DNA of 64,000 bases from Kiritimatiellia bacterium (lineage in GTDB: Bacteria > Verrucomicrobiota > Kiritimatiellia > UBA8416 > JAWODU01). This document shows, piece after piece, positions 14,841-47,777 of this stretch. Both the position numbers and the translations under genes were made by a program. The DNA lies in contig JAWODU010000019.1 of the NCBI GenBank assembly GCA_046483125.1, forward strand, positions 1,911 to 65,910, written 5' to 3'. Position 1 is the first letter of the stretch, and the number at the start of each line of letters is the position of its first letter. The notes under the pieces were generated by a model. It saw only the letters and a list, made by a program, of their open reading frames with translations, did no database searches and was not told the DNA's origin.

Positions 14841-14876
14841 AAATACAAGCGAAGCGGAAGGAGGGGGATCTGCCGG

Positions 14877-15455: not shown

Positions 15456-15480
15456 GTCTCTTTCTTAGCATATGATCCCA

Positions 15481-19797: not shown

Positions 19798-19853
19798 ACC
19801 AACCGCCGCACTTCTCCATCCTGCCGATCCGGGAAAATCCTGACTGCTGAATA

Positions 19854-21160: not shown

Positions 21161-21237
21161 GACAGACGTCTTACTTGAAGCGACAGCGGAAGTGGGCGGG
21201 CGGCGAGGACTACGACTAAGCCCAATTTCGTCGTTCG

Positions 21238-21492
21238 CTATCTGTAGACTTCTTTTCGATCTCCGATCGCGACCACCAAGACTACAAGCCTGTCATCATG
21301 GATTTCGTAAATCACGCGGTATGAACCGATGCGAATACGCCAAGCAGGCCGGCCCGAAAGCTTCTTGCAGCCGGGAGGGCGAGGATTCTCCGCAAGGGAT
21401 TCAATGGCTGCAATGATGCGTGCGTGGTCCTGACGGTTGATTTTCGCGAGTTGCCGTTGAGCCCGACGCAGAATATCGACTGCGTACGTCAC
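21238..21492 (-). CDS. RelE/ParE-family type II toxin
   Basis: 84 aa. LAENP..GCKKLSGRPAWRIRIGSYRVIYEIHDDRLVVLVVAIGDRKEVY is a canonical RelE/ParE core. Confidence 0.85.
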   Translation of the reverse strand: MTYAVDILRRAQRQLAKINRQDHARIIAAIESLAENPRPPGCKKLSGRPAWRIRIGSYRVIYEIHDDRLVVLVVAIGDRKEVYR

Positions 21493-21695
21493 GTATCATA
21501 TCCCTCTCGAATCTCTCGCACGGCTTGCTCGAAAGGGATGGCGTCCTGAGGGCCGGCTTTCGCCTTGTCGTAGGTTCTGATATCGTCGAGTTCCTCGAGA
21601 TCCTCGACAACGCGTTGCCACTCGGAAACAGGAAGGATGACAGATTTGGGGTTCTGTTTTTCGTCAACCACGTATTCTGGATGGACTTTAATCAT
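21489..21695 (-). CDS. Phd/YefM-type antitoxin paired with the RelE-like toxin
   Basis: 68 aa. Overlaps the toxin start by 4 nt and carries a GGAGGAAATAAT RBS. The acidic C-terminus is typical of these antitoxins. Confidence 0.65.
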   Translation of the reverse strand: MIKVHPEYVVDEKQNPKSVILPVSEWQRVVEDLEELDDIRTYDKAKAGPQDAIPFEQAVREIREGYDT

Positions 21696-21749
21696 ATTAT
21701 TTCCTCCAACTGACAGGCTTCTCGATCTTGCAGATCAATTCTTTTCGCT

Positions 21750-21942
21750 TCATGCGATTTGAAGCTCCGCCACCTTGCGGACACCAGGGATGTGCCCGCC
21801 TGTGAGGTCGTCATAAAGATCCTTAAGATTTTCCTGAAGGTTCCTCAAGGGTTTCTCCTTGAGTCATGTAATCGGGATAATCCTCCAGATATCCCAACCA
21901 CATATTTTCATATTGCCAGTGGACATATCGTATTGTTTTCAT
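21750..21942 (-). pseudogene. HicB-like (HicB_lk_antitox-type) antitoxin gene with an apparent +1 frameshift
   Basis: Frame A gives MKTIRYVHWQYENMWLGYLEDYPDYMTQGETLEEPSGKS*. Shifting one nucleotide at about 21835 continues the family-conserved ...TLEELQENLKDLYDDLTGGHIPGVRKVAELQIA*. This is consistent with an extra C in a CC run. Confidence 0.5.
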
Positions 21943-22009
21943 GTTATTAATATACACCTTGTTTGGATTTTTAGCAATCTTCTCTTTTGACACAACGCAA
22001 TCGGGGGAT

Positions 22010-22204
22010 TCATACCCGGCGTAGGCCGCATCTGCCATACCCGCCGGTCTGCCCCAGCTGCCTCCAGCCACTGACCCGGTACGCCGTGCCTCGAAAAAAC
22101 TGCCCGTCAACAAAGCTCTCGGCCACCAGGATCGGATGTTTATACCGCTGTTGCCAGTCGTTACTCAGACGCTGCAGGCACAACTTCATCGTCCGGCTGG
22201 CCAA
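22010..22204 (-). mobile_element. Possible IS/transposase-associated remnant (DUF4338-like C-terminal fragment)
   Basis: The 64-aa ORF VAESFVDGQFFRGTAYRVSGWRQLGQTGGYGR resembles the conserved C-terminus of IS-associated proteins. No intact transposase or terminal inverted repeats were recognised. Confidence 0.25.
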
Positions 22205-22390
22205 GTTCGCATAGTGACAGTCCGGCAGGAGCTTATGTGTTTTTTAAGGGACGCTGACCCCGTGGCCCCGTCGCTGATTTGTCTTCTTCGCAAGGCAGAA
22301 TAATGCTTAAATACTAATTCAAGGGTTGGCCCCACGGTCCACCACGGTCCATCTTAAAACGAGCATTTCCTTCCGTTTGTCCAAGTAAGT

Positions 22391-23908
22391 TCAGCGGATA
22401 ACACGCCGGTCGGAGATTTTCAGCAATTCTTCGGCCATGGCGTCCGAGCGCGCCACCCGCGGCACCTTGTGCTGGCCGCCCAGCTTGCCTTTTTCCTTCA
22501 TCCACTCGTAAAACGTGCCGGGAGACACCGTTATCATGACCGGCGGCCTGAGCCCGTAATCGCCGCGGCGATGGGTGTCGTAGTCCTCGCTCCGCGCGCG
22601 GATTTCGGAGTCCACGGTTTTCATGAATTCGCTTTCGTTTCCGGGCGGCGAGTCGAATTCAAATATCCACCTGTGAACCGGAACGGGTTCTTCAACAGAA
22701 GGATAACGCGGCCACACGGTGTAGTCGCTGAGAACCGCCCCGGTTTTTTCGCAGGCTTTTCCCACGGCTTTTTCCATCATCTCAAGGGTCACGTGTTCTC
22801 CGAAAGCGCTCAAGCCGATCCTGGTGCGCCCCGCGAATCTCACCCGCGGCGGCTGTACGCTTTCGAAACGTATCACGTCGCCAAGAGGATAGGCCCAGAT
22901 GCCGCCGTTTGTGGAAACGACTAAAGCGTAGTCCCTGCCCGTTTCCACCTCGCCGAAATGCAGGCGCGGCGCTTTCGCGTCTCCGGCCCGCTCCGCGGGA
23001 ATGAATTCGTAGTAGACACCGTTGTCCACGAGCATCCGCAACGGCCCGCCCGGTTCTTCCTGTATGGCCGTCATTCCCGCTTCGGAGGATGAATACGTGT
23101 CCATGTAAGCTATTCGGCGGCCTATGTATTCTTCAAAGGACTTCCCATAGGGTTCAAAGGCCATGCCGTATGACACGAAACACGCAAAGTCCGGCCACAG
23201 GGTCCCCGCGTTGCCGCCTCCCGAAGCAATCATTTCCTTAAACAGAAGCGCCGCCCAGGAAGGACAGGCGGACAGCACGCGGACCCTGGAGGTCAGGTAA
23301 CGTTCCACGATCATACGAATCTTCCGCTCCCAGTCGGCAACACACGCTATGTCCGCCTCCGGCAGATACCTGCCGTGCGCGTAAAACGGTATGTGTCTGC
23401 CCATTATTCCGGAGGCGTCGCCGTAGAGGCTTCTGCCCCGTTTCCTCAGGGAAGTCGAACCGCCGAGGTAAAAGAATTTCCCGTCCAGAATCGTCTCCGC
23501 GCCGACCCGCCGCGCCATAAAGGCGAGAAGCGCCGCGCCGGACCTCTTGTTGGAAGCGATGGCTTCTCTGGTAACAGGCAGGAGCTTGTTGCCGGCGGTA
23601 GTGCCCGAAGAAAGGGCAAAATAGCGGACGTGTCCCGGCCAGGTCACGTCGCGGGCGCCTTCAAACGCCTCGTGCCATTCGGGGGAGGCGGTTTCGTAGT
23701 CGGCAAGGGGCACGGCCGAGCGGTATTCTTCGGGGGTACGGATCTTCGAAAAACCGTGTTTACGGCCCAGGCGCGTAGCAGCCGCGCGCCCAAGCAGGCC
23801 GCGCAGAAGACGCGACTGGGAAGCGGCCGGATCGCGGCCGGATTCTTCCAGCTGTGCCGTGCGGCGCCGTATTGCCGCCTCTACCGCCAGTACCGCGAGT
23901 TTTTTCAC
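22391..23908 (-). CDS. GH3-family acyl-acid amido synthetase (adenylate-forming)
   Basis: 505 aa. SSGTTAGNKLLPVT AMP-binding motif and overall GH3-like architecture. Confidence 0.8.
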   Translation of the reverse strand: MKKLAVLAVEAAIRRRTAQLEESGRDPAASQSRLLRGLLGRAAATRLGRKHGFSKIRTPEEYRSAVPLADYETASPEWHEAFEGARDVTWPGHVRYFALSSGTTAGNKLLPVTREAIASNKRSGAALLAFMARRVGAETILDGKFFYLGGSTSLRKRGRSLYGDASGIMGRHIPFYAHGRYLPEADIACVADWERKIRMIVERYLTSRVRVLSACPSWAALLFKEMIASGGGNAGTLWPDFACFVSYGMAFEPYGKSFEEYIGRRIAYMDTYSSSEAGMTAIQEEPGGPLRMLVDNGVYYEFIPAERAGDAKAPRLHFGEVETGRDYALVVSTNGGIWAYPLGDVIRFESVQPPRVRFAGRTRIGLSAFGEHVTLEMMEKAVGKACEKTGAVLSDYTVWPRYPSVEEPVPVHRWIFEFDSPPGNESEFMKTVDSEIRARSEDYDTHRRGDYGLRPPVMITVSPGTFYEWMKEKGKLGGQHKVPRVARSDAMAEELLKISDRRVIR

Positions 23909-34327: not shown

Positions 34328-35791
34328 CTATTTGCCGGGGTCCCACCTGCCTACGAGCTTCTCGAAGGCAGGGCCGGGAAAGTTCTCCTTGAAAATCCTG
34401 TAATACCACATTTCCTTCGGAGAATTGAGCCTGTAACCGCCTTCCGTGTTCCGGCTCTCTTCCGTGAATGCGTCCTTTTCGAGCTTCCTGCCGGCTATTT
34501 CGTCCATCAGGTCGTCCGTTCCCGTACCGGCGGAAAATCTCAGTTTGACCCTCCTGTATATTCTGTCGGGCAGAAGGTCTCTGAAAGCTTCGCGAAGTAT
34601 CCATTTTTCCACGAGCGTACCGTTCCCGGACGGATGAATTTTCCATTGCACAGGCGCTGAGTCCGCGAAAGCTATCACGTGCGGATCGATGAAAGGAGTC
34701 CTGTAATTTATGCCGTTACCCATCATCGCCCTGTCTAGCCGCTGTACGGCAGTGTTGTAAGCTATGGCCACGAGCTTGTGCATCATATGCAGGCGGTCGA
34801 GATCCGTGGGCAGTTCCTTCAGAAGATGATATCCTCCGAAAAGCTCGTCTCCCCCTTCCCCGCTCAAGATGCAGTTTGTGAATCCGCTTGCCAGCCTGGA
34901 AGCGAACAGATTTGATATCGCCCCGCTGACGCAATCCTCGTCGAATGATTCCAGGATCCGGACCGCTTCCGGCACCATTGTCTCTATTTCCGAAGCGTCG
35001 AAAATGTGGACCTCGTGTTTCATGTTAAGGTGTTTAGCCATCAGTTCCGCGTTCTCCAGGTCCTGCGCCCCTTCCACCCCAACGGTCACCGCGGGCACTT
35101 CCGCTCCAATCTCTCTTGCCGCGGCGGCTATTACCGAACTGTCCAGGCCGCCGCTCAGAAGGCAGGCGCCGACGGCCCCGTCCTCTATGCGGCGTTTCAC
35201 CGATTCGCTGAGAATTACGCGCAGTTTTTCAGCGGCTTCCCCCGCTTCGGCCGGCATGGTTATGTCCGGCTGGCGCGCCACGTACCCGCCGGTTCCGTGC
35301 CTCGCCGAATACGTAGTTGAAGGATGCATTTCCCACACGTCCTCAACCAGCCCGGACAGCGCCTTCATTTCGGAAGCGAAACACAGCGCGCCGTTCTTAG
35401 CCGTTCCAGCGTACAGGGGACGCACACCGACGGGATCCCTGGCAAGAACCACGTCTTTGCCGTCGTAAACCGCGCTGGCGAATACCCCCTCCAGATAGGC
35501 GGGAAAAGCCAGTCCGTGTTTCTCAAACTCATCCATCACAACATCCGCGTCGGACTGTCCCCGCGGCCGGTCGTTGTAAATTTCCCCATCCAGCAAAACA
35601 GCAATGTTGTCCTTTTGGGTAAACCCGTTCCCCCGCGCCGGAGAAAGACGCCCGGCGCAGACACCCAGGGCCGCCTGTTCGTACTGCCTGATTTCACGGC
35701 TGTCGGCTCCCCGGTGCCGCATGGTTTCGATCATACCGGCTGCACGTTCTTTATCGCTTCCCGCCCCGAACATTCCCGCTATTCCCGCCAT
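34328..35791 (-). CDS. Asparagine-synthase-family amidotransferase homologue lacking the N-terminal Cys nucleophile
   Basis: 487 aa. Starts MAGIAG rather than MCGI. SGGLDSS PP-loop ATP pyrophosphatase motif. Its stop overlaps the downstream start by 1 nt. Confidence 0.8.
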   Translation of the reverse strand: MAGIAGMFGAGSDKERAAGMIETMRHRGADSREIRQYEQAALGVCAGRLSPARGNGFTQKDNIAVLLDGEIYNDRPRGQSDADVVMDEFEKHGLAFPAYLEGVFASAVYDGKDVVLARDPVGVRPLYAGTAKNGALCFASEMKALSGLVEDVWEMHPSTTYSARHGTGGYVARQPDITMPAEAGEAAEKLRVILSESVKRRIEDGAVGACLLSGGLDSSVIAAAAREIGAEVPAVTVGVEGAQDLENAELMAKHLNMKHEVHIFDASEIETMVPEAVRILESFDEDCVSGAISNLFASRLASGFTNCILSGEGGDELFGGYHLLKELPTDLDRLHMMHKLVAIAYNTAVQRLDRAMMGNGINYRTPFIDPHVIAFADSAPVQWKIHPSGNGTLVEKWILREAFRDLLPDRIYRRVKLRFSAGTGTDDLMDEIAGRKLEKDAFTEESRNTEGGYRLNSPKEMWYYRIFKENFPGPAFEKLVGRWDPGK

Positions 35792-35821: not shown

Positions 35822-36715
35822 TCAGAGCAGGCCCTGCTCTTTCAGAAACTGTTCCGCCACTTCTTCCGGTTCGCGTTTTTTTTCATCGACCTGGTAGTTG
35901 AGCTTTCTCATCGTCTTATCGTCAATCAAACCGCCGAGACGTTCCAGGGCATCGACCGCGTCCGGATACTTCTCTTTAAATTCAATGCGAATTACCGGGG
36001 CCGCGAAATACGGCGGGAAGAACTGCTTGTCGTCTTTCAGTTTTTGCAGATTGTAAGCGGCAATGCGTCCGTCGGTGGCAAAGGCGCAGATTACGTCCAC
36101 GTTGCCCTGCTCCGCCGCTTCATACATGATCCCGGGGTCCATGTCCATGGTGTTCCCGAAATCAAGCCCGTAGCGGTTCTTGAGACCGGGGTACCCGTCC
36201 TCACGTTCCATGAATTCGGCCGTGAATCCGGCCGTCAGGGTATCGCCAATGGCCCCGAGGTCGCTTATGGTGTCCAGGTTTTTTTCTTCGGCGAAGCTTT
36301 CGCGGACCGTTATGGCGTAAGTGTTGTTGAAGCCGAAGGGTTCCAGCCAGTCGCATTGATAGCGCTCCCTGTAAGCCCGGTCCACAGCCTCGTACGCTTC
36401 TTCGGGGTCCCGTATCACGTCTTTTTTCAGAATGGCCGTCAGGGCGGTTCCTGTGTATTCGGCGTACACGTCAAGGCTTCCGGATTCCAGCCCTCCGTGG
36501 CAGATCATTGTGCCTCCGAGGTTGAACACTCTCTTAACGTCCATGTCTGTTTCCGCCTCGATCACAAGGGCCATCAGTTCGCCCAGTATCAGCTGTTCGG
36601 TAAAGTTTTTCGACCCTACCCGGATAACGCCTTCCGTGTTGCCGCCGCCGCATCCGGATCCGGCTAGAATCGCGGCCGCCGCCGCGCACGCCGTTATGTT
36701 TTTTATTATATGCAT
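35822..36715 (-). CDS. Glycine betaine/quaternary-amine ABC transporter substrate-binding lipoprotein (OpuAC/ProX-like)
   Basis: 297 aa with a LAGSGC lipobox and IRVGSKNFTEQLILGEL typical of OpuAC. Confidence 0.85.
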   Translation of the reverse strand: MHIIKNITACAAAAAILAGSGCGGGNTEGVIRVGSKNFTEQLILGELMALVIEAETDMDVKRVFNLGGTMICHGGLESGSLDVYAEYTGTALTAILKKDVIRDPEEAYEAVDRAYRERYQCDWLEPFGFNNTYAITVRESFAEEKNLDTISDLGAIGDTLTAGFTAEFMEREDGYPGLKNRYGLDFGNTMDMDPGIMYEAAEQGNVDVICAFATDGRIAAYNLQKLKDDKQFFPPYFAAPVIRIEFKEKYPDAVDALERLGGLIDDKTMRKLNYQVDEKKREPEEVAEQFLKEQGLL

Positions 36716-36728
36716 AACTTAACTCCCG

Positions 36729-37370
36729 TTATTCCGACTGCCTCAGTTTCTTTTTCAGTGCTTTCTCCGCGAGATGGAGCAGAAAATCGACCAGCAACGC
36801 CAGTATCGAAGCCCCGACGACTCCCAGCAGTATGAGGTCGCGACTGCGTATGCTGAGTCCGCGGTTAATGAAATCGCCCAGGCCTCCGGCGCCGATAAGC
36901 GTGGAAAGTGTCGCGATACCGATATTGATCACGGTCGCCGTGCGGATGCCGGCCATGATAATGGGTGAAGCAAGCGGCAGTTCCACCTTCCATAACCTCT
37001 GTGTACGGGTATATCCCAGGCCGTTGGCGGCTTCCAGAATGGCCGGGCCCACATTCTGAAGCCCAGCATAGGTGTTGCGCACAATAGGCAGAAGCGCGTA
37101 TAGCACCAGCGCCGTAAAGGCGGGAAGAAAGCCCATCGCGTTCATCCATACCTGCAGGAGGGCCAGCATGGCCAGACTGGGGATGGTCTGCACGACCCCC
37201 GCGATCCCCATCACCGGGCCGGCAAGCTTTTGATGCCGCCCCACCAGCATGCCAAGCGGCACGCCCACGGCCACGGCGAGCCCGCAGGCCGAACCCACCA
37301 GCAGTACATGCTCCAGTGTTTTACTCAGCAACATCGTGTGCCGTTCGGCGATAAGGTTCAGGAATTCCAT
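36729..37370 (-). CDS. ABC transporter permease (OpuAB/ProW-like)
   Basis: 213 aa with 5-6 TM helices and a BPD-transporter EAA-like loop. Confidence 0.85.
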   Translation of the reverse strand: MEFLNLIAERHTMLLSKTLEHVLLVGSACGLAVAVGVPLGMLVGRHQKLAGPVMGIAGVVQTIPSLAMLALLQVWMNAMGFLPAFTALVLYALLPIVRNTYAGLQNVGPAILEAANGLGYTRTQRLWKVELPLASPIIMAGIRTATVINIGIATLSTLIGAGGLGDFINRGLSIRSRDLILLGVVGASILALLVDFLLHLAEKALKKKLRQSE

Positions 37371-38128
37371 GACGCTTCCCGGTTAAGCTGTTTCAGTTGA
37401 TTCGCCGGTTTTTCAAACAGGCTTTTTACAAAATCGGAGGCGGGGCGCTGAAGGATGTCATCTTTTGTCCCTACCTGTTCCAGCCGGCCCTCATGCATCA
37501 CCGCCACGCGGTCGGCCAGTGTCAGCGCTTCGAAAATATCGTGGGTAACGAAAATAATCGATTTGCTGATTTCCCTCTTCAGCGAAAGGAATTCCTGCTG
37601 AAGCTCGTCCCTGGTCAGCGCGTCCAGGGCGCCGAAAGGCTCGTCCATCAGGAGGTATTTCGGATCGGCCGCCAGACCCCGCGCAACTCCCACCCGCTGT
37701 TTCTGTCCCCCGGAAAGCTGATCGGGGTATTGAGAGCCGTACCGGTCGGGGGGCAGTTTAACCAGCTCCATAAGCTTCCGTGAACGATCACGGCGTTTCT
37801 GCCGGTCCCAGCCAAGAAGGCGCGGCACGGTTTCAATGTTTTCCTCAACGGTCATGTGAGGAAACAGGCCGATGCCCTGGAAAACATATCCGATGGACCT
37901 GCGAAGTTCTACCTCGTCGCGGTCCATGATATTCCGGCCGTCCACCGTAATGATACCGCCCGAAAGTTCAATCAGGCGGTTGATCATCTTGAGCGTGGTG
38001 GTCTTGCCGCATCCGGAGGACCCCAGCAGAACGAGCGTTTCATCCTCTTCAACGGTCAGGGAAACGCCGTCCACCGCGTATGTACTGCCGCCGTCAAAGG
38101 ACTTTCTGACTTCCTCGAGCTCAATCAT
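37358..38128 (-). CDS. ABC transporter ATP-binding protein (OpuAA/ProV-like, no CBS domains)
   Basis: 256 aa. Walker A GSSGCGKTT, signature LSGGQKQRV and Walker B LLMDEP. Confidence 0.9.
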   Translation of the reverse strand: MIELEEVRKSFDGGSTYAVDGVSLTVEEDETLVLLGSSGCGKTTTLKMINRLIELSGGIITVDGRNIMDRDEVELRRSIGYVFQGIGLFPHMTVEENIETVPRLLGWDRQKRRDRSRKLMELVKLPPDRYGSQYPDQLSGGQKQRVGVARGLAADPKYLLMDEPFGALDALTRDELQQEFLSLKREISKSIIFVTHDIFEALTLADRVAVMHEGRLEQVGTKDDILQRPASDFVKSLFEKPANQLKQLNREASWNS

Positions 38129-38976
38129 GTCCGGGATTCCGTCGAAGGCGTTTTGAGGGTGAAGTCCTCGGGAATTTCTCCGAACCTGACGAGACCTTCG
38201 ATAATTCCCGAAACATAGTAACCATTCAATTCGCCCATTCCCTCCGCCACCCGCAGGAGATGCTCCATGCCGTTTGAACGCATTGCCTCTTTCACGGCGG
38301 TTTTTACTTCGGGAATGGCGTTTCGCACTACTATGGCCCTGTACCCCGCCGTCAGGGGAAGCAGATCGTTCCCGCTGTCTCCGCAGTAAATAATTTCCTC
38401 TTTTTGAACTTTCATGGATCCCCGCAGGTATTCCAGAGCTTCAAGTTTACTGGCGGCGCGAGGCAGTACGTCCAGAAGACCCCGGCCCCTTGTTTCGTCG
38501 ACGCTGTAGATAACGCGGAAATCCGGACAGATCTCTCCAATAGCTTTCTTTACCGCTTCGACAGTATCGGACCCCTTTTCCGGATGGTCCAGGTAATAGC
38601 TCAATTTGAACTCGTTCTGATTCCGCGCTTCCTGGAGCCGGAGATCCGCCAGCGAGGCCAGGGCGTTTTTGAAAGCTTCGACGTCCCAGTTGCGCGTCGA
38701 TTCCTCGATTAAACGGATGTACCCTTTGTCTTCGGTGAACTCCCTTCCGTCCAGGTCGTATATTTTCGTGCCCACCTCCGCCACCGCGTACAGCGGCAGG
38801 GGAGGATCGTATTTTTCCATGCCTTCGAGTATCTGGTCGCGGTTGCGGCCGGTTACGTAAATCAGCGGAATTTCCCGTTTGCGGACGATTTCGCCGAACA
38901 GCCGCATGGAGTTATCGTATTCCTGTTTCCCGTTGGGGAAAAGGGTCCGGTCCAGGTCGGTGGCAATCACCGTCAT
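38125..38976 (-). CDS. HAD-IIB phosphatase, sucrose-6-phosphate-phosphatase-like
   Basis: 283 aa. DLDRTL (DxDxT) motif and an SPP-like cap. Translationally coupled to the flanking genes. Confidence 0.7.
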   Translation of the reverse strand: MTVIATDLDRTLFPNGKQEYDNSMRLFGEIVRKREIPLIYVTGRNRDQILEGMEKYDPPLPLYAVAEVGTKIYDLDGREFTEDKGYIRLIEESTRNWDVEAFKNALASLADLRLQEARNQNEFKLSYYLDHPEKGSDTVEAVKKAIGEICPDFRVIYSVDETRGRGLLDVLPRAASKLEALEYLRGSMKVQKEEIIYCGDSGNDLLPLTAGYRAIVVRNAIPEVKTAVKEAMRSNGMEHLLRVAEGMGELNGYYVSGIIEGLVRFGEIPEDFTLKTPSTESRT

Positions 38977-38991
38977 GGTTCGTTCCTCCGG

Positions 38992-41508
38992 TTACTCTTC
39001 AAGGATTTCCTTGATGTCTCTTGTGCACATCCCGGGCGAAGCCTGGCAGATGTAAAGGCCGATCTGTTCGTACCCCCCGCATTCCTGGCTGTACGGCAGG
39101 AACTCGAAGAAGAGACCCGCGCCCGGACCGTTGGCCGTCGTAACGTTGAAAGCGACTTCCCGGCCCAGCATAAGCAGTATTCTGTGCATCGCCCTTGAAG
39201 CATCGTGCCAGCCCTGGGCCACGGCCTCCAGTTCCTGGTCGTTCAGCTCGAAAATGTGGGACTTCTCCGTGTCTTTCACCAACAGCATCATGTCGTAGGG
39301 ACGGCGCATGAAGTAAGGCACGGCCAGGACTGCCGGGCCGTAGTCACGCAGGGTGAATTCCGGAGGATTTGTCTCCTGCATGTAAGCGGAAAAGAATTTG
39401 CCTTCCTTTTCCCGGAATTTCACCAGGTCGTCGTTTCTCCGCGGCATGACGTTGGCGTAGACTATCTGCTGATGGCCGTGGGCTATCGATCCGCCCACCA
39501 GCCGCCCGTGATTTTTGATAATTGAAACGTACCTGTCTTCCCGCCCTCCGTTATCCCCGGAAAGCAGAACTTTTTCCAGCTTCCCCAGTCTCCGCATAAC
39601 TATTTTACAGTCCGATACCGGCATATTGTGCCAGTCCCTGTCCTGGTAGGAAGAAGTCCACTGCAGAAAATGACAGCCGGACACTTCTTTTCCCTCCGGA
39701 CCGCCGCCGGTCTTCGAGCCCTTCTGTTTCCGGCTTTCCTTTCCGTCGGGACAGACCACGGGAAACAGGTTGAAGTTTATGAACGTGAAACCCTGGCTCA
39801 GATCCGCGACGTCCACAGCCCCGGTGGTCTTTCCCTTGGAAATAATGGAAGGGGCCCTGTTGGGATCCTCCTGGGGCGCTTCTTCCACGTTCCCCGATTC
39901 GTGGGGCCGGCGGGCCCTTGCCAGACTGTACAGGATGCGGTCGCCGTTACGCGGGTCGACCTGGTATCTTTTTTCGGGCCGGTAATCCCCGATATCGGGC
40001 TCTTCCTTCGCCAGTTTTATAATCCCGTCCCGGTCCAGTCTTTCGATGTTTTCGTTGCGGAGTATGCCCTTCAGTTTGTCGCGGGAAAAAGAAAAGCGAA
40101 TCTGCAGTTCAACCGGCTTCAGTTCTATCCCGATGCTTTTCAGGAACTGGGTGCTCAGGTTCTCCCATGTAAAATGAGGTATCGTGATATTGTAGGCTTT
40201 TCTGCCCATCTCCCTGCGCAGTGAATCGTCGCTCAGCAGTATTTCCAGCGCGCCGGCGAAGCCTTCAACGCTGTTGGCCGGCACCACAATGACCCCGTCT
40301 CCCCGCCGCACCTTTTCTCCGCCGTCTACAGGCACCTCTTCGGCTTCCCTGCCCAGGAGATGCTCCACGGCGAACGGAACAAGGTCGCTCGCCACGGCCG
40401 GAACGCCCGTGGCCGCCGCCTCCTCAACCGACATTCCGAAGCCTTCCATTACCGAAGGCGTGCAGTACACACTGCTTGCCGCGTATATCTTCGGAAGAAC
40501 GTCCCATACCGAACCGACGACTATGACGTCGTCCTCCACTTTCAGCTCCGAAATCAGCCCTCGAAGTTTCTGGGCCAGTTCCCTCTTGTTGTCGTCTATG
40601 GAGACTACAAGGAGGCTGTCTTCCGCCTTTTCATGCATCCGGGCGAAGGCGCGAATCAGAATGTCCTTCTTCTTGGTGTCGTCGGTCCTGCTGATCTCGG
40701 TTATGATCCTGCGCTTCTTTATTTCTTCGGGCTTCAGGCGGCTGTGCTCGCTGAAGAAGCACCATATCTCGCTGTCGTGAGAGAGGTCCGCGGGGTGAAA
40801 ACGCCTGGGATTGACGCAGGGCGGCAGAAAGAGATCGGTGTCGTATTCGTAATCGTTTTTCAGCGAATCTCTGATAACCGATGACGTGGCGGCGATATCG
40901 TCCACGGTTTTGACGATGCCTTTTTCTTCCTCTATGCGTTCGTCGATGCGCAGGGATTCCCATGTGGACCGGTCTACGTTGCGTTTCTTCAGCGCTCCCA
41001 GGGAATGGGGTATCCAGATGTGCTTCTGATTGTACGGCAGGCGCTGATTCAGCAGAAGGCCCAGCTTCGCCCCGTCCCAGTAATGGGAAATGATCAGATC
41101 TACCTGCGTGTCCTCCTGTATCACGTACTGTTCCAGGTTTTCCGCCAGTTTCGGAAGCTGTTCATTCATGTCTTCCTTGCGGACGAATTCCTTTTTGTCG
41201 TCCTCGACGTATAGAATCCTCTGGAGTTCGTCCTGATAATCGAGTCCCCTCCGCAGAAGCCCCGTGTTGGGATGCAGATAACCTCCCCTGTTTACTATGG
41301 TGACCTTGAACCCGGCCCTGACCAGGGCGTGTGTCATCTGGTTGACGAAAACGTTCTGCCCTCCCGTGTCGGGAAGTCCCGGTATGACGTCCCACTGATG
41401 AATACCGTGATTGGTTATCATCAGCAGATGGGGGCGTTTTGAAGCCAGAAAATCCTTGTGAAATCTTCTCCTGCGAATCTGCCTTTCGGACTGCGGAATA
41501 TCCAGCAC
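38992..41508 (-). CDS. Fusion protein: sucrose-phosphate-synthase-like GT4 glycosyltransferase plus C-terminal GalT-like (HIT superfamily) nucleotidyltransferase domain
   Basis: 838 aa. The N-terminal HGIHQWDVIPGLPDTGGQNVFV is the SPS/GT4 hallmark. The C-terminal KNHGRLVGGSIAHGHQQIVYANVMPRRNDDL aligns with the GalT active-site region (NPHPHGQIWAN) and an upstream Cys pair. Confidence 0.7.
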   Translation of the reverse strand: MLDIPQSERQIRRRRFHKDFLASKRPHLLMITNHGIHQWDVIPGLPDTGGQNVFVNQMTHALVRAGFKVTIVNRGGYLHPNTGLLRRGLDYQDELQRILYVEDDKKEFVRKEDMNEQLPKLAENLEQYVIQEDTQVDLIISHYWDGAKLGLLLNQRLPYNQKHIWIPHSLGALKKRNVDRSTWESLRIDERIEEEKGIVKTVDDIAATSSVIRDSLKNDYEYDTDLFLPPCVNPRRFHPADLSHDSEIWCFFSEHSRLKPEEIKKRRIITEISRTDDTKKKDILIRAFARMHEKAEDSLLVVSIDDNKRELAQKLRGLISELKVEDDVIVVGSVWDVLPKIYAASSVYCTPSVMEGFGMSVEEAAATGVPAVASDLVPFAVEHLLGREAEEVPVDGGEKVRRGDGVIVVPANSVEGFAGALEILLSDDSLRREMGRKAYNITIPHFTWENLSTQFLKSIGIELKPVELQIRFSFSRDKLKGILRNENIERLDRDGIIKLAKEEPDIGDYRPEKRYQVDPRNGDRILYSLARARRPHESGNVEEAPQEDPNRAPSIISKGKTTGAVDVADLSQGFTFINFNLFPVVCPDGKESRKQKGSKTGGGPEGKEVSGCHFLQWTSSYQDRDWHNMPVSDCKIVMRRLGKLEKVLLSGDNGGREDRYVSIIKNHGRLVGGSIAHGHQQIVYANVMPRRNDDLVKFREKEGKFFSAYMQETNPPEFTLRDYGPAVLAVPYFMRRPYDMMLLVKDTEKSHIFELNDQELEAVAQGWHDASRAMHRILLMLGREVAFNVTTANGPGAGLFFEFLPYSQECGGYEQIGLYICQASPGMCTRDIKEILEE

Positions 41509-41541
41509 TGTAACTGTGCTCCTTTCTGTTATCTCGTTTAC

Positions 41542-42993
41542 TTACTCAAAAACCGATACCGCCGGGGTAAGCCTTCCCTCCACCAGGCGCAATAGCTGTT
41601 GGGCTATGCCCGTCCACGTGAACAGACTGCGGACCTTTCGCGCTCCGTGCATGGAAAGCCTCTGCCTGATGTCCGCGAACTGCAGGATTTTCGTTACGGC
41701 TATGCCGAAATCCTCCGAGTCCAGCGGGTCCGCGTAAAGAGCTTCTATCCCGTAGGCTATTGTTCTGTACAGCCCGCCCCGCGTGGTGACTACCGTGGGC
41801 GTGCCGCAGGCCATGGCCTCCACCGCCGTCATGCCGAAAGGTTCGTACCTGCTTGGAACCGCGAATACGTCCGCGGCCCTGTAATAATCCGCCATGGCCT
41901 CGTCCGGCAGGGAGCCGGATATCCGCACTCTGTCTTCGAGCCTGTACTTCCTCACCAGCCCGTGCAGTTCCTCGCACATCGGATCTTCGGTGCTCTTGTC
42001 GTCCTCTTTGCCCACCGCCAGTCTTAAACGTGCCTTGGGTATGCGTTTGGCCGTCACCGCGAAGGCGTCTATAAGAAGATCGAACCCCTTGTTGCGGCTC
42101 AATCGACCTATTGAAGCCACCACTGGTCCCTCGTAGCCGAAGTCGCCGCGAATACGCCGTCTCATGGGTTCACCCACAGGGTAAAACCGGCTGTCGTCGT
42201 AGCCGGGCGGAATCATGCGCACTCCGTCCCGCGGCACCTCGTAATCTTTTTTCAGCATGTCTATCTGCATCGGAGAAGTGGCGATCACCATATCGGCGTC
42301 GCGGTAAAGAAGGCGTTCGTTATGAATGCGCTCGGTGAAATTGTAAGTCTTGTCCAGTTCCTCTTCCGACGCCGAACCGTCCGCCTGCATCTGCCTCTTT
42401 TTCCACAAGCCCAGCGAATGCGGCGTGTGCACGTGCGGAATATCAAGCGCCGCGGCCATCTTCTGCCCTGCCATGCCGCCGTCCCAGTAGTGACTGTTCA
42501 CGAACTGGTAAGTCAGGCCGTTGTCCCTGATATATCTCAGGGCGCGCTCTCCCCACTCGCCCAGTTCCCTGTACAGGTGCTCTTTGGGTATGAAATCACG
42601 GCCGCCGCAGGGTATTCGAATAATACGTACGTTCTCGGCGACTTCCTCGGTTTCGGGCTGGTCCTCGAACCGCCTGGTCCAGATATCCACCCTGTATCCC
42701 AGCTCGGCGAGTTTTACGGACAGCTCCAGGAGATAAACCACCTGTCCCCCCGTATCCGGTGCGCCCAGCGGCGGCTCGGCGGCCACGTACCCGTGAGTCG
42801 ACACCATTGCTATCCCCTCGCGGGCCTCTCCGGGTTCGTCGTGTTTCCTTATCGGTGTGAATTCTTCTCTTTCCACGGACATCCCTTCTCCTTCCCCATT
42901 GTCTCCGCTTACCGTTTCCGGTTCCATGGAATGCTCAATTGCGGCTTCCTCGTCTTCTTTCATGACAACTGCGCTTTCCGCCCCGCCGGCCAC
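41542..42993 (-). CDS. Sucrose-phosphate-synthase-like GT4 glycosyltransferase (catalytic domain only)
   Basis: 483 aa. APDTGGQVVY motif and a GT-B retaining-GT pattern (EPFGMTAVEAMACG). Confidence 0.8.
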   Translation of the reverse strand: MAGGAESAVVMKEDEEAAIEHSMEPETVSGDNGEGEGMSVEREEFTPIRKHDEPGEAREGIAMVSTHGYVAAEPPLGAPDTGGQVVYLLELSVKLAELGYRVDIWTRRFEDQPETEEVAENVRIIRIPCGGRDFIPKEHLYRELGEWGERALRYIRDNGLTYQFVNSHYWDGGMAGQKMAAALDIPHVHTPHSLGLWKKRQMQADGSASEEELDKTYNFTERIHNERLLYRDADMVIATSPMQIDMLKKDYEVPRDGVRMIPPGYDDSRFYPVGEPMRRRIRGDFGYEGPVVASIGRLSRNKGFDLLIDAFAVTAKRIPKARLRLAVGKEDDKSTEDPMCEELHGLVRKYRLEDRVRISGSLPDEAMADYYRAADVFAVPSRYEPFGMTAVEAMACGTPTVVTTRGGLYRTIAYGIEALYADPLDSEDFGIAVTKILQFADIRQRLSMHGARKVRSLFTWTGIAQQLLRLVEGRLTPAVSVFE

Positions 42994-43003: not shown

Positions 43004-44293
43004 CTACCGTTTGTCTATTTCCAGTATACCCACCAGTCCATGCGCGCATCCCTGACCCTGTTGAAGTTTTGTGGCCACGTGCCTCAGCGCGTAACCGAGC
43101 TGAGGTTCGATAATATTTTCCCTCGGAAGACCCATACCCAGCCACCCCGTGCCCTGAATGACTCTCTGCATTCTCCTCAGCATGTCGCGTACCGGCTCCG
43201 GGGCCGCGGGCAGAGGTTCCGGCAGGGGGCCCCCGAACCTTTCGCTTTCCTCGTCGAACAGTTCAAGCAGTTCGGCCGTGTAGCTTATCAGGTAGTTCCA
43301 GCAGGCCTGCATATTCTCGAAATACCTGTTCAGAAAGTCAAAACCCTGCCTGGGGACGTAATCAATCTTAACATTCTGCAGGTCGGTCCGCACATTCACC
43401 TCGTGAAGCGAGTTGATGCCGCTCCGGATAGGCTGTGCGTACGGGTTGTAGTCGCCGGTGTCCATATGGCGCCCGGTAAAAATGGACCTGTCGTAAAAAC
43501 ATACGGGGTTGATCTTCACGCGGGCACGGCGGCTTGCTTCAGTTATGATATTCTCCGCTTCCGCGCGGCTCATTAATCTCAGCGTCAGGTGTTCCAGCTC
43601 GCTTCGCCTCGCTTCCCGCTCATCCTCGTCATAGATATAGGACACCACGTAGTCCATGTTCTTCAGTTCCGAGGGCTCTTTTTTCCACAAACTCTGCCAC
43701 TCGTACGAATACCGCCCTATCCAGTCGCAGTGCACAATAGTGTAATTCCTCGCCTGCGAAGCGATATCGCATAAAAGCTGGATCATCGTCTCATCGTCAT
43801 TGAGATGCGAACAGGTCCCGAATGACGAAAAATAAAGATCATACGGATCCTCGCCGTCCACCGCGGGCAGTCCTTGTGTGAAATCGCCTTGTTCAAACAT
43901 CACTTTCGGCTCGTTCCCGTAGATTCCAGCGGCCTGGTCCAGCAGGTCCCTGTTGAGATCGACGCCCTTGTAAAGTCCAAGGACATCGGGCGAAAGCAGG
44001 TCCGTTTCCACCTGCTGTAGATCGGCGTCACGCTGACGTACACCCGCCAGGAGCTCGTAACCGTCCGCGCTCCCACAGCCAAGGTCCAGGATTCTCACCC
44101 TTCTCAGGTCCCGCCTGCAGTTCTTTATCAGCTTCAACAGATACGGGCGGAGATAATGACGCGTGATTTCGTCCTCCCAGAACCGCCGCACGTTGTCGTA
44201 TTTGCCTACAAGCCCGGATTTCTTCGCGTAAAGCCCGCTTTTCACCGCTTCGGTATAAGCAGACATCTGGTCGTTTTCGGGGTTTTCGCTCAC
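43004..44293 (-). CDS. Class I SAM-dependent methyltransferase
   Basis: 429 aa with motif I ILDLGCGSADG. The substrate is unknown. Confidence 0.65.
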   Translation of the reverse strand: MSENPENDQMSAYTEAVKSGLYAKKSGLVGKYDNVRRFWEDEITRHYLRPYLLKLIKNCRRDLRRVRILDLGCGSADGYELLAGVRQRDADLQQVETDLLSPDVLGLYKGVDLNRDLLDQAAGIYGNEPKVMFEQGDFTQGLPAVDGEDPYDLYFSSFGTCSHLNDDETMIQLLCDIASQARNYTIVHCDWIGRYSYEWQSLWKKEPSELKNMDYVVSYIYDEDEREARRSELEHLTLRLMSRAEAENIITEASRRARVKINPVCFYDRSIFTGRHMDTGDYNPYAQPIRSGINSLHEVNVRTDLQNVKIDYVPRQGFDFLNRYFENMQACWNYLISYTAELLELFDEESERFGGPLPEPLPAAPEPVRDMLRRMQRVIQGTGWLGMGLPRENIIEPQLGYALRHVATKLQQGQGCAHGLVGILEIDKR

Positions 44294-44302: not shown

Positions 44303-45778
44303 CTATTTCAGTGTCTGCGGCAGTATGCCCGGTATTTCTCTTCTGATGTGCTCCGCCACTTCATCGGGCAGAGGATTGCGTTCCTGCTCCATGATCTGCT
44401 CGTACTGCCGGTGCGCGGCCCAGAGTGCTCCATGCTCTTCGTCTTCCAGCGGGTACTTTACGTAAACGGACTCACGGGACGGGAGCGGAAGGTGGTAGAT
44501 AAAGGTTTTCTGGTCTTCCGCCATTACTTCCCTGATCGTGGAAAGGACTTCTTCGGTCCCGTCCTCGGAAAAGCCGGGCTCCTTGAGCATATGCTTAATG
44601 AACCCTATGTGGGCGTCGTCCATGACCGCCTGTTCCGGGCAGAAAATGTTGGTCCTTTCCAGGAGACCGAAGGCGTAATGAATGTACTGGGCGCCCCCGC
44701 GCGGCACCGAAGCCAGCGTCAGGATCTTTTCAGCCGTCGCCTGTATGCCCGGAGCGGGCGCATCCGCCACACCCGCCGTGGAATAACACGGAATGCCGTA
44801 GAAGCGCGCCATCTGCGCGCAGTCGATATTGTAGTGGCTGAATTCGGGCGCGCCGTACATGTCGTTCAGGTTGTCGAGCCTCGTGCGCACGGGAACGGCG
44901 CCGTAGAGTATGGAACTGCCGGGCTGGACCATCTGGTTGAGTGTTATGCCGGCGAGCAGTTCCGCGTTTATCAGCGCCGTCATGCCGAATTCGTCGAACG
45001 GTCCCGTGGCCCCTCCCATGGGACAGCTCGATATGACAACGGGCTGGCGCCGCCTGGCTATTTCCATAAACGTCTCCGCCGTGTCCTCCACCAGCTGTAA
45101 AGGGCTCTTGACCGCACAGCAGATAAACGAAATCACCGGATTGGTCTTGAAAGCTTCCTTCCCGCCGGCCACTATTTCGGCCATTTTCAAGACTTCGTCG
45201 AGCGAGTCGATATCCGTCAGTCCGGCCTGAACGTGCTTCGTTATGTTGTTAAGGCTGGCCAGGAACTTGTTCACGTCCTTGTTGCGTGCGGTAACTTCCT
45301 CATCCTGAATGTTGACACAGCGGATGAAGAAGTCGAGATTGGGCAGATGATCGCACAGATGGGCGGCCCTGCACAGCCGTTGGATGGAACCGTTCTCTCT
45401 GCTGAATACCGGCTTGCCGTCTTCAAAAGAGACGTCCAGCCATATGTTCGTCTCCGACCCGCTCCCGAACCGCACGCGCGGCTCCCCGGCATTCAGGATA
45501 AGCCGGTTGTCCGGGTTTCTCGCGCCCAGCACCACCGTGGAAGGCGCCGATTCCACCGCCCTGCTTACCATGTCGGACGGAATGCGGACACGACTGCAGT
45601 CTTTGGCGTCTTCAACCGCCGCGCCGGCCTTTTGGAATACCTTCGCGGCCTTTTCGTTGTAACACAGAAGCCCGGGATCCTGGAGCATCTCCCTGGATGC
45701 CGCGTCTACCTGGGCAATCTGCTTCTCCGAGAGTCGCAGGTAGGGTTTTACGAGCACTCCCTCACGCTGTTTCTTCAT
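44303..45778 (-). CDS. MttB-superfamily (non-pyrrolysine) quaternary-amine:corrinoid methyltransferase homologue 1
   Basis: Roughly 490 aa from the ATG at 45778 (MKKQREG...). TIM-barrel MttB-family similarity and no in-frame amber codon. The track ORF extends to 45859. Confidence 0.8.
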   Translation of the reverse strand: MKKQREGVLVKPYLRLSEKQIAQVDAASREMLQDPGLLCYNEKAAKVFQKAGAAVEDAKDCSRVRIPSDMVSRAVESAPSTVVLGARNPDNRLILNAGEPRVRFGSGSETNIWLDVSFEDGKPVFSRENGSIQRLCRAAHLCDHLPNLDFFIRCVNIQDEEVTARNKDVNKFLASLNNITKHVQAGLTDIDSLDEVLKMAEIVAGGKEAFKTNPVISFICCAVKSPLQLVEDTAETFMEIARRRQPVVISSCPMGGATGPFDEFGMTALINAELLAGITLNQMVQPGSSILYGAVPVRTRLDNLNDMYGAPEFSHYNIDCAQMARFYGIPCYSTAGVADAPAPGIQATAEKILTLASVPRGGAQYIHYAFGLLERTNIFCPEQAVMDDAHIGFIKHMLKEPGFSEDGTEEVLSTIREVMAEDQKTFIYHLPLPSRESVYVKYPLEDEEHGALWAAHRQYEQIMEQERNPLPDEVAEHIRREIPGILPQTLK

Positions 45779-45866
45779 GACTTCCCTTCTGTTTTCTTTT
45801 TTCGGAATAGGTCCCACGGTTGCCACAGCAGTTGCCATGCGCCCCGGCCGCGGAGACACGATCGCC

Positions 45867-47333
45867 TCATTCTACACCGGGTGTACGGATCTCCGGGCAG
45901 GTTTTCAGAATATCGCTCCGCAGAGACGGCTCTATCAGTTCGGGCGCCTGCCCCTTGCGCACCTCGGCCACGAAGGCCCTTGCCCTGGACAGGGCGTCGT
46001 CATCCGGCCCCATGCTTTCGCGCCTGTCCCGGTTGGAGAGTTTCGGCTCGAAAAATTCGCCGCGCATATATCTGATCGTGTGCTCCTCCGCGAGGTAATC
46101 TTTCCCCGGCCCCTTTTTGATCATTACGTCGGTTGCCAGGGTGCCCCTGTCCACCTCGATTCCCCTGAGTACTCTCTGGCACATCCCCAGTATTTCGTTG
46201 TCCATCGCAAGCTTTTCGTAGGAGACCGTAAGGTCCGTTTCCATCAGCCCGGCAATATCGTGAATATAATTCGCCCCGCTCATGGCCACCAGCAGACTGG
46301 ACATTGCGCTCTCGTACGCCGCCTGGATATCCACTTCTTTGGCGTCGGTCGTTCCGCCGGTCGAATACAGAGGTATCTCGAAATACTGGGCCATTTGAGA
46401 AACCGCGGCGTTTATCATGGCCCTTTCTATGGCGCCGCCCACGTGGTTCATGGTGCGGAGATTCGTGACCGATCCCACGCTCCCGCATATGCCGGGAGCC
46501 CCCCTGCGCACCGACTGAACCAGCGCTATCCCGCCGAGTGTTTCGGCAATGTGGGTCAGGACGTTCCCGGCCAGTGTTATCGGAGATGTGGTTCCGCATA
46601 TCGGCTCGGTAGGCATTACAACCGGCAGGCCCTTCCCCGCAAGGTAACAGCTTATTTCGCCGTAGTGGTCGTCTATTTTAAAAGGGCTGATAACCAGCGT
46701 AATGAAAGATACAAATGGCTTCTCGGCCAGCGCCTCGGCGCCGCCGGCCAGTTTTTCCGCGATTTCAACGGCCCGACGGCATCCGTTCATGGTGTATATA
46801 CCGCCCATCACGTGCTTGGTGGTGTTGTCAAAGGCATGAAAGAACCGGTTGGCGTCGATTTCCTCCCTCTCTTCTATGTCGTTGGGAAACACGTTAATGG
46901 TAAAAAGATGGATATTCTCAAGAGCCTGCACCATACGGGCGTTAAGTATGACGTCGGTAACCGTCGAAGGCCGCCTTTCCCCGGTGTCAGGGTCCAGTAC
47001 GTATATCGCCGTTCCCCCGGTGCCGTAATGGACGCGGTTTTTTTCGAGCACGCAGTCGGTTTTTCCGTCACGCGAGTAAAGAGTTACGCTTGAAGGGTTG
47101 GAGGAAACCGCGTCTTCAACCAGGCTCCGGGACAGCTTGACCGTGGACGTTTCCTCGTCAACTTCGGCTCCCGCATTCCTGAAGGCCTCCCTTGCGGCCT
47201 TTGAATAGACCAGCATGCCCGCCTTTTCCAGAATCTCGAAAGCCGATTCGGCTATTTCCTTTACATCCCGGTCCGAAAGGGGCCTGTACAGCGATGACCT
47301 GAGCCCGTGTTTTTCATGTTTCAATTCAGTCAT
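45867..47333 (-). CDS. MttB-superfamily (non-pyrrolysine) methyltransferase homologue 2
   Basis: 488 aa, paralogue of the downstream gene. No adjacent corrinoid-protein gene is visible. Confidence 0.8.
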   Translation of the reverse strand: MTELKHEKHGLRSSLYRPLSDRDVKEIAESAFEILEKAGMLVYSKAAREAFRNAGAEVDEETSTVKLSRSLVEDAVSSNPSSVTLYSRDGKTDCVLEKNRVHYGTGGTAIYVLDPDTGERRPSTVTDVILNARMVQALENIHLFTINVFPNDIEEREEIDANRFFHAFDNTTKHVMGGIYTMNGCRRAVEIAEKLAGGAEALAEKPFVSFITLVISPFKIDDHYGEISCYLAGKGLPVVMPTEPICGTTSPITLAGNVLTHIAETLGGIALVQSVRRGAPGICGSVGSVTNLRTMNHVGGAIERAMINAAVSQMAQYFEIPLYSTGGTTDAKEVDIQAAYESAMSSLLVAMSGANYIHDIAGLMETDLTVSYEKLAMDNEILGMCQRVLRGIEVDRGTLATDVMIKKGPGKDYLAEEHTIRYMRGEFFEPKLSNRDRRESMGPDDDALSRARAFVAEVRKGQAPELIEPSLRSDILKTCPEIRTPGVE

Positions 47334-47600
47334 AATACCTTTTCCCTTCTCAATCGGCCCCTACGCCACACGGCCGGCCGGGCTTTTCGGCCCGCCGGTC
47401 GCTGTACCGTCCGGTACGCGGATTTTCGAGCAATATAACCCCCGACCCGCCTGCCGGTTAAAACCTGTAGCGTCTACAGTACCCGCGGGCGCCGGTGAAT
47501 TCAAGCCTAAATACGCGGGCGTACGAAGTGCTCGTCGTAAAATTACATGACATGATGGCCCGTTGGCTGATATTCTTACATTTGAAACAGGAGCAAAGAT

Positions 47601-47777
47601 ATGAGGGAAAACCTGATATTGGCCTTCGTTTTGACTGCTTTGGCCGCCGGCCTGGCCACCGGTATAGGCAGTATTCTGGATCTTTTCGCGAAAAATACAA
47701 ATCACCGCTATTTATCGGTGTCCCTGGGTTTTTCGGCGGGAGTAATGATCTACGTGTCTTTCGCGGGAACCGGTTGA
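47601..47777 (+). pseudogene. N-terminal fragment of a ZIP-family (ZupT-like) metal transporter
   Basis: The 58-codon ORF MRENLILAFVLTALAAGLATGIGSILDLFAKNTNHRYLSVSLGFSAGVMIYVSFAGTG* matches the first two TM helices of ZIP transporters and then stops. An inverted repeat follows (acgattacgg...ccgtaatcgt). Confidence 0.35.

Follow-up and report, generated by a model that had tools for sequence, protein, structure and literature searches.

A stretch of 64,000 nucleotides from a Kiritimatiellia bacterium (GenBank assembly GCA_046483125.1, contig JAWODU010000019.1, positions 1,911 to 65,910; called the window below) carries three tightly spaced minus-strand open reading frames (ORFs) that exactly occupy window positions 38125-42993. 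They encode a family 4 glycosyltransferase (GT4) resembling sucrose-phosphate synthase (SPS), termed GT4b; a fusion protein of 838 amino acids (aa), termed F (38992..41508), in which a second GT4 domain is followed by a GalT-like HIT nucleotidyltransferase; and a phosphatase of 283 aa (38125..38976) resembling sucrose-phosphatase (SPP). There is little doubt about this description at the level of domains. The glycosyltransferase and the GalT-like part of F recur as a pair, fused or as adjacent genes, in at least four phyla, and the reading favoured here is that they would act together as a reversible hexosyl-fructose-6-phosphate phosphorylase/synthase which, in this locus, the phosphatase would pull towards the synthesis of a solute; the probability of this reading is put at roughly 45%.

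The C-terminal part of F (residues 463-838, window 38995..40122, minus strand) had been taken, in a preliminary description made from the letters of the sequence, for a GalT-like HIT domain fused to a glycosyltransferase, and formal profile and fold searches do match it to the GalT/HIT families. As a single sequence, residues ~512-838 gave weak matches to the NCBIfam GalT model NF008724 (E 5.8e-8) and to PDB entry 1z84 (E 5.8e-5). A profile of 16 family members matched 1z84, an ADP-glucose phosphorylase, with E 9.3e-18 (67 bits) and Escherichia coli GalT with E 8.5e-12 (48 bits), the alignment being full-length (profile positions 44-361 on residues 25-347 of 1z84). An AlphaFold2 model of the whole of F was built from 26 fusion proteins (mean pLDDT 86, pTM 0.58), and the Foldseek matches of its C-terminal half include 6k5z and 1hxp at E values of about 1e-15 (TM-score 0.74 for 6k5z) and 2h39 at 6e-14 (TM-score 0.69). 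No Pfam family reaches its threshold in this domain, DUF4931_N, GalP_UDP_transf and DUF4921 being sub-threshold, and PF01087 has sub-threshold matches in 7 of the 16 family members. The H-x-H-x-Q motif that had been reported is present as HGHQQ (F residues 677-681, window 39466..39480, minus strand); H679, Q680 and Q681 are invariant in the alignment of the 26 fusion proteins (A1) and in a second alignment (A2), and some 60 further positions of the GalT-like part are likewise invariant. H679 is the predicted nucleotidylated histidine and, judged by their motifs, both halves of F look catalytically intact.

The domain includes a helical N-terminal segment of ~50 residues that is also carried by stand-alone homologues. 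When 1.84 billion cluster representatives were searched exhaustively with HMMER, only 232 relatives came up at E <= 1e-3, mostly stand-alone proteins of 350-390 aa, and by sequence the family is a small, distinct and unannotated branch of the GalT/HIT family. A distant member (31% identity; locus L085, 753-1889) has FtsA/MreB-like and DnaJ-like genes as neighbours, with no glycosyltransferase among them, so that the family is not exclusively associated with glycosyltransferases.

The association of the two parts of F could be followed in other genomes by scanning one genome per species, which gave 191 relatives of the fusion; the counts that follow cover 80 loci of these, examined by tblastn and ORF clustering. 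A GalT-like gene lies directly downstream of an F-type glycosyltransferase in 61 of the 80 loci. The same fusion, sought outside the window, was found in 14 of them as one uninterrupted frame (Planctomycetota and some Chloroflexota), and the remaining 47 have separate adjacent genes, mostly in Anaerolineae and Spirochaetota and including the cultured Pelolinea submarina MO-CFX1 (L037), in a gene order equal to the domain order of the fusion. The fusion had at first been considered unusual; it is real, but it is no singular oddity, being the fused form of a pair that 61 or more species-level genomes contain. An F-type glycosyltransferase is again the neighbour of a stand-alone GalT-like protein with 41% identity. 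Taken together, the adjacency, the fusions and the shared order argue that the glycosyltransferase and the GalT-like part are functionally coupled. In a rough neighbour-joining tree of the glycosyltransferase domains the fused forms are polyphyletic, falling in several separate places, and the glycosyltransferase of the window groups with genes of Opitutales and Spirochaetes that have the phosphatase and no GalT-like partner. The nearest relatives of this domain (L035, L041, L061 and L063) have the phosphatase and lack a GalT-like gene, which argues that the GalT-like part is an accessory of donor supply rather than a step acting on the product. Literature searches for the fusion or the gene pair returned nothing relevant; a mention of mfpsA in Pontiella concerns an exopolysaccharide cluster, not this pair, and a search on the substrate range of Pelolinea submarina gave nothing usable.

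The N-terminal part of F (residues 1-462, window 40123..41508, minus strand) is a GT4 domain of the GT-B, retaining type, with SPS-like and MshA-like features. Residues ~26-460 match PF00534 (E 4.4e-23, 82.1 bits against a cut-off of 26.4) and also PF13439, and the closest solved relatives are the Thermosynechococcus SPS 6kih (E 3e-18), MshA 3c48 (2e-17) and the Halothermothrix SPS 2r60; with the N-terminal half of the model, Foldseek again found 6kih (E 2e-25, TM-score 0.83) and also matched MshA. Identity to 6kih is ~23%, and the F-type glycosyltransferases form a separate family of their own. An E355-x7-E363 motif, R274 and K279 show no or almost no variation among 72 F-type and 14 GT4b-type sequences, and an Arg/Lys pair such as R274 and K279 binds the donor diphosphate in GT4 enzymes. 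In a HMMER alignment to MshA, residues K111, Y143, S169 and R191 of F fall on K78, Y110, T134 and R154, the residues that bind the phosphate of inositol-phosphate in that enzyme, and these acceptor-site positions sit in motifs common to SPS. K111, Y143, S169, K174 and R191 are invariant in all 72 F-type glycosyltransferases, in both of the genomic contexts described below, and in the 14 GT4b-type enzymes; because the residues of an MshA-type phosphate site are invariant in both contexts, the acceptor of the glycosyltransferase is most likely phosphorylated in every case. The S6PP-type phosphatase and the GH32 (glycoside hydrolase family 32) and fructokinase-like neighbours most likely point to fructose-6-phosphate as this acceptor, glucosyl-fructose and mannosyl-fructose being candidates for the sugar made.

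That two SPS-type glycosyltransferases and an SPP-like phosphatase lie at 38125-42993 had also been proposed, and Pfam and PDB matches confirm it. The phosphatase, a HAD-IIB protein, matches Pfam family S6PP (PF05116; E 1.7e-43, 149.4 bits against a cut-off of 20.3), has the Synechocystis sucrose-phosphatase 1s2o as its closest solved relative (E 2.3e-14), and carries HAD motif I (DLDRT) and motif IV (GDSGND); its homologues, at 49-55% identity, adjoin F-type glycosyltransferases in L024, L035, L041, L042, L061 and L063. GT4b (maximal ORF of 483 aa, 41542..42993, minus strand) scores 111.9 bits with PF00534 against 26.4 and matches 6kih with E 1.6e-60. The first 62 residues of the ORF (window 42808-42993) are acidic and not conserved, and homologues cover just 85-92% of it; public annotation and homologue coverage make a gene of 421 aa starting at M63 (41542-42807) likely. 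A purine-rich stretch precedes each of the two candidate ATG starts, and a start at M63 leaves ~196 nucleotides after the preceding methyltransferase gene, room for an internal promoter, none of which was found by scanning. Homologues of GT4b (45-52% identity) adjoin the fusion in about 10 of the 80 loci.

Two contexts can be distinguished among the 80 loci. In 29 an S6PP-type phosphatase is adjacent; every fused locus whose flanks are long enough to judge, 12 in all, is among them. Loci of importer type number 41, with a LacI regulator, a sugar ABC importer, GH32, PfkB and/or a uridine-kinase-like protein as neighbours; proteins of clan GH-J / GH32, with a Thermotoga beta-fructosidase as best PDB match, occur in 16 loci, PfkB in 17, and a P-loop protein of 218 aa that belongs to the PRK/uridine-kinase family in 11 (L014 at 12433-13089, L037 and nine others). 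The binding protein of these loci matches just generic sugar-binding proteins, which does not pin down the imported sugar. The phosphatase and importer/kinase contexts are almost mutually exclusive, overlapping in one or two loci. The uridine-kinase family is the template family for the modelled sucrose kinase domain of AgaSK of Ruminococcus gnavus, an enzyme whose locus also encodes a GH13_18 sucrose-6F-phosphate phosphorylase (PMC7688924), and by analogy the 218-aa protein is a candidate sucrose (disaccharide) kinase. Of the preliminary description of the locus as one for a compatible solute, the pairing of SPS-like and SPP-like proteins is borne out; the description does not extend to the pair as such, since about half of the pairs lie in import/GH32/kinase loci without a phosphatase. 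The glycosyltransferase and its GalT-like partner are therefore not intrinsically a compatible-solute device and probably work reversibly.

The acceptor, donor, phosphorolytic chemistry and direction proposed in what follows are offered on the strength of the observed domain identities, intact motifs, conserved pairing and fusion, and the two contexts. The three genes would constitute a cytoplasmic pathway to a non-reducing hexosyl-fructoside, which could be sucrose or resemble mannosylfructose. F, through its GT4 domain, would transfer hexose from a nucleoside diphosphate (NDP)-hexose to the phosphorylated acceptor, most likely fructose-6-phosphate, releasing NDP, and the GalT-like domain, through a nucleoside monophosphate (NMP) carried on H679, would convert NDP and hexose-1-phosphate to NDP-hexose and inorganic phosphate, the reaction of an NDP-sugar phosphorylase in reverse. 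Supply or recycling of the NDP-sugar donor by the GalT-like domain is thus part of the favoured explanation. The net reaction would be hexose-1-phosphate + fructose-6-phosphate -> hexosyl-fructose-6-phosphate + phosphate, with the nucleotide acting only catalytically and no nucleoside triphosphate (NTP) spent. Dephosphorylation by the S6PP-like phosphatase would then render the pathway irreversible. For the operon of the window this predicts a compatible solute, produced next to betaine-type uptake, while in the importer/GH32/kinase loci without a phosphatase the pair would run in the reverse direction as an ATP-saving, two-enzyme substitute for a GH13_18 sucrose-6F-phosphate phosphorylase. 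GalT-branch HIT enzymes transfer NMP from NDP-X to a phosphate-bearing acceptor by way of a His-NMP, and phosphate is a common acceptor in this branch, as in the Ap4A, APS and ADP-glucose phosphorylases (bioRxiv 10.64898/2026.09.13.751320). A single chemistry based on an NDP cycle would account for both contexts, for the adjacency, for repeated fusion in the biosynthetic context and for close glycosyltransferase relatives that can dispense with a GalT-like gene, and the closed cycle is favoured because it alone explains both contexts with one chemistry. A broader proposal, made a little more tentatively, is that the pair, separate or fused, may represent a new mechanistic class of disaccharide-phosphate phosphorylase/synthase, in which a Leloir-type glycosyltransferase and an NDP-sugar:phosphate nucleotidyltransferase share a catalytic NDP, allowing NTP-free cleavage or synthesis of a sucrose-like sugar in anaerobic Chloroflexota, Spirochaetota, Planctomycetota and Kiritimatiellia, the fusion having arisen repeatedly where the pair is biosynthetic.

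Among the known systems close to the locus is the SPS/SPP pathway (SpsA-Spp; 6kih, 2r60, 1s2o), with which it shares a GT4 enzyme of GT-B type bearing an SPS/MshA-type site for the acceptor phosphate and a HAD-IIB phosphatase of the S6PP family, SPS being the best structural match of both glycosyltransferases of the window. The locus differs in that the window proteins lie far under the curated SPS and SPP equivalog cut-offs and in that the glycosyltransferase carries, and its family adjoins, a GalT-like HIT enzyme, a partner mentioned in no description of SPS/SPP found in the literature searches. The pairing of an SPS-like GT4 with an SPP-like phosphatase to make an osmolyte is also that of Agrobacterium MfpsA/MfppA (KEGG K13058), which is not known to have a GalT-like partner. 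Homologues (57-69% identity) of both glycosyltransferase families are labelled mannosylfructose-phosphate synthase by JGI; the label does not discriminate, because both families receive it, and when the glycosyltransferase domain was run by tblastn against plasmids in search of an annotated relative like MfpsA, no match exceeded 26% identity. For the C-terminal domain the closest solved relative is 1z84, and the likeness to Arabidopsis At5g18200 ADP-glucose phosphorylase (1z84/2h39) and to class I GalT (1hxp) lies in the full-length two-lobed fold of the GalT branch and in HxHxQ, whereas identity is ~17-20%, no curated GalT cut-off is passed, the window protein lacks the Cys pair of the zinc site, and the GalT-like family is fused or adjacent to glycosyltransferases. 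A tentative functional analogy can be drawn with the GH13_18 sucrose 6F-phosphate phosphorylase and sucrose kinase of gut Firmicutes such as R. gnavus (PMC6521584; PMC7688924), for which the net reaction, glucose-1-phosphate + fructose-6-phosphate <-> sucrose-6F-phosphate + phosphate, would be the same as that proposed here and whose locus follows a similar logic of regulator, ABC importer, glycosidase and uridine-kinase-like kinase; the proteins are unrelated (GT4 and HIT as opposed to GH13), and the present pair would need two steps and a nucleotide carrier. The locus may thus be regarded as a variant of the SPS/SPP-type pathway defined by its dedicated GalT-like HIT partner, of which the searches found no description.

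Several points weigh against the proposed chemistry. With a pTM of 0.58 the model does not predict the mutual orientation of the two halves of F, and channelling between them therefore has no structural support. F and the relatives nearest to it (P0002, P0003 and P0019) lack the CxxC pair that most members of the GalT-like family retain; F has PSIISKGKTTG in its place, and also Q for the conserved His of SSxHD, both changes falling within window ~39660-39850 (F residues ~553-617). In E. coli GalT the ligands of the structural zinc are C52, C55, H115 and H164, of which F keeps only the equivalent of H164 (H677), so that this subclade has, as judged from the alignment, lost the zinc site that is typical of class I GalT. 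The expectation that a glycosyltransferase/phosphatase pair of this kind makes sucrose, mannosylfructose or a related glycoside accords with the domain calls, but the curated cut-offs are not reached: the SPS model TIGR02472 gives 73.6 bits for F and 209.6 for GT4b against a cut-off of 576, TIGR02468 (SPS) 97 bits against 1144, and the SPP equivalog TIGR01485 95.7 bits for the phosphatase against 183.65. With scores below these cut-offs, and with MshA matching the glycosyltransferase of F about as well as SPS does, some other sugar phosphate or a polyol phosphate could be the acceptor. A kinase is within reach in only 26 of the 41 importer-type loci, and the proposal does not account for the role of GT4b. 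Moreover, sequence comparison does not separate a phosphorylase from a hexose-1-phosphate uridylyltransferase or from an NTP-using variant.

The first of these two variants is the alternative that survives best, and is itself unlikely. The GalT-like domain would be a true Leloir-type transferase (UDP-glucose + hexose-1-phosphate <-> UDP-hexose + glucose-1-phosphate) supplying an unusual UDP-hexose such as UDP-galactose, from which the glycosyltransferase would load the phosphorylated acceptor and so give a fructoside of galactose or of another hexose. The best NCBIfam models do name GalT (NF008724 as above, and TIGR00209 with E 1.3e-5), and Foldseek places GalT structures slightly above 2h39; yet every GalT model is far under its cut-off (32.2 bits against 448 for NF008724, 24.3 against 102 for TIGR00209), and the family profile scores ADP-glucose phosphorylase higher. 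Nor are galK, galE or other Leloir genes found among the recurrent neighbours in the 80 loci, and in the importer/kinase loci such a transferase would leave the nucleotide cycle unclosed, because UDP-glucose would accumulate.

The remaining alternatives are quite improbable. HIT enzymes accept various NMP-X donors, and on this general knowledge of the family the GalT-like domain might take NMP from NTP and make NDP-hexose and pyrophosphate, as a HIT-type stand-in for GalU, GlgC or ManC at the usual NTP cost. Such an enzyme would also explain the adjacency to a glycosyltransferase and the accessory status of the domain; it would leave the presence of the pair in the phosphatase-free importer/GH32/kinase loci unexplained, and this activity is not described for any of the solved relatives that the searches found. 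The locus of the window might instead serve turnover as well, F phosphorolysing a disaccharide phosphate made by GT4b and recovering glucose-1-phosphate and fructose-6-phosphate after osmotic stress. GT4b, which resembles SPS in a more canonical way than F, could act as the synthase, the chemistry proposed here can run both ways, and separate-gene pairs do lie in catabolic-looking loci; the phosphatases, however, track the F-type glycosyltransferase and not GT4b (29 adjacent phosphatases as against 10 GT4b homologues in the 80 loci), and all fused forms that can be judged go with a phosphatase. Finally, that the glycosyltransferases belong to no solute pathway and build the precursor of a glycolipid, cell-envelope or thiol-type glycoconjugate on inositol-phosphate or a similar acceptor, the phosphatase trimming an intermediate, would suit the near-equal match to MshA and the name "glycosyltransferase involved in cell wall biosynthesis" that one source gives to homologues (F itself is 100% identical to a protein of a Kiritimatiellia metagenome-assembled genome annotated merely as "glycosyltransferase"), but it fits poorly with a phosphatase of S6PP type rather than another HAD class, with recurrent neighbours that are GH32, fructokinase-like and sugar-importer genes and not lipid or envelope genes, and with operon partners that are transporter genes of osmolyte type.

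These partners belong to a same-strand run of ten genes reading from 47333 down to 34328 on the minus strand, with gaps of at most 33 nucleotides when maximal ORFs are taken: MttB, MttB, a methyltransferase-like protein, GT4b, F, the phosphatase, an ABC ATPase, a permease, OpuAC and an AsnB-like protein. The contig comes from a metagenome-assembled genome, and its proteins match NCBI entries at 100% identity. The OpuA-type transporter (35822..38128) comprises the ATPase (37358-38128), the start of which overlaps the phosphatase stop by 4 nucleotides, the permease (36729-37370) and the OpuAC binding protein (35822-36715), with matches to PF00005, PF00528 and PF04069 (E 6e-69) respectively; its proV subfamily score is 311.8 bits against a cut-off of 326.6. 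An asparagine-synthetase-like protein recognised by Pfam and NCBIfam follows (34328-35791). On the other side, a protein of 429 aa (43004-44293) resembles class I S-adenosylmethionine-dependent methyltransferases by a weak Methyltransf_25 match and a model with the generic methyltransferase fold and nothing more specific; its family is strongly conserved, with at least 1499 matches in several phyla, including Planctomycetota, Lentisphaerota and Hydrogenedentes, at 63-74% identity. The two MttB homologues (44303-45859 and 45867-47333) match PF06253 with E 2.6e-61 and 2.6e-88 and score 258 and 395.7 bits with the pyrrolysine (Pyl)-type model TIGR02369, below its cut-off of 525; both ORFs are uninterrupted, and by sequence they belong only to the wider PF06253 family. 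Within the second of them (45867-47333) Rfam reports PYLIS_3, the pyrrolysine insertion element of mttB, at 46253-46352 on the minus strand, with 41 bits where the gathering score is 38. This match begins near codon 328, about the position of the Pyl codon in Methanosarcina mttB; since the ORF has no in-frame stop, the match is probably conserved coding sequence and not a working element. Promoter and terminator scans gave scores no better than those of shuffled sequence, and Rfam found no riboswitch upstream of the operon. A 114-aa ORF of low complexity in the upstream intergenic region (47361-47705) was judged spurious as a gene.

The earlier view of the whole as an osmoprotectant-related array running from the OpuA transporter to the MttB genes was correct as to these flanks by Pfam. 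It joined two modules, since the series MttB-MttB-methyltransferase-OpuA-(AsnB) is conserved in several phyla, and without sugar genes in L081-L084. Three other contigs have MttB, a small ORF or a DUF362/4Fe-4S protein, MttB, the methyltransferase, an OpuA-type ABC transporter, MarC, and either an AsnB-like protein or MscS, with no sugar genes between the members and no corrinoid-protein gene beside the MttB genes. Because the module occurs elsewhere without sugar genes, the operon of the window can be seen as this module with an insertion of three genes, for GT4b, F and the phosphatase, after the methyltransferase and ahead of the ABC ATPase. The two modules are neighbours, in a different order, on a Planctomycetaceae contig (L017), and parts of each occur in L016; the association thus recurs, which fits a shared osmotic role, but it is not obligatory. 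In L081, genes for a PIG-L deacetylase-like protein, a GT4 and a GH100 protein (neutral invertase family) lie at 14567-17302, downstream of the MttB/methyltransferase/ABC/AsnB module, and constitute a further link of this module to sugars. Elsewhere in the window, the stretch ~19850-22400 has a G+C content of 48%, against ~57-59% in the rest, contains no ORF of at least 150 aa and directly adjoins the only tRNA gene of the window (tRNA-Thr, 19854-19929, minus strand); it could be what is left of an integrated element, or it could be non-coding.

Should the proposed chemistry prove false, the locus would still be a clean case of an SPS/SPP-like solute module recruited into an operon for a betaine-type transporter. 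Should it prove true, the pair would represent a third route to sucrose-type disaccharides, nucleotide-catalytic and reversible, beside SPS/SPP with donors made by pyrophosphorylases and beside the GH13 phosphorylases, and F, as a natural self-recycling glycosyltransferase fusion, would be relevant to the artificial coupling of sucrose synthase to glycosyltransferases for the regeneration of NDP-sugars. A function would also be found for a branch of the GalT/HIT family that is distinct and carries no annotation, and the ability of energy-limited anaerobes to afford sugar osmolytes or to gain an extra ATP from fructosides would be explained.

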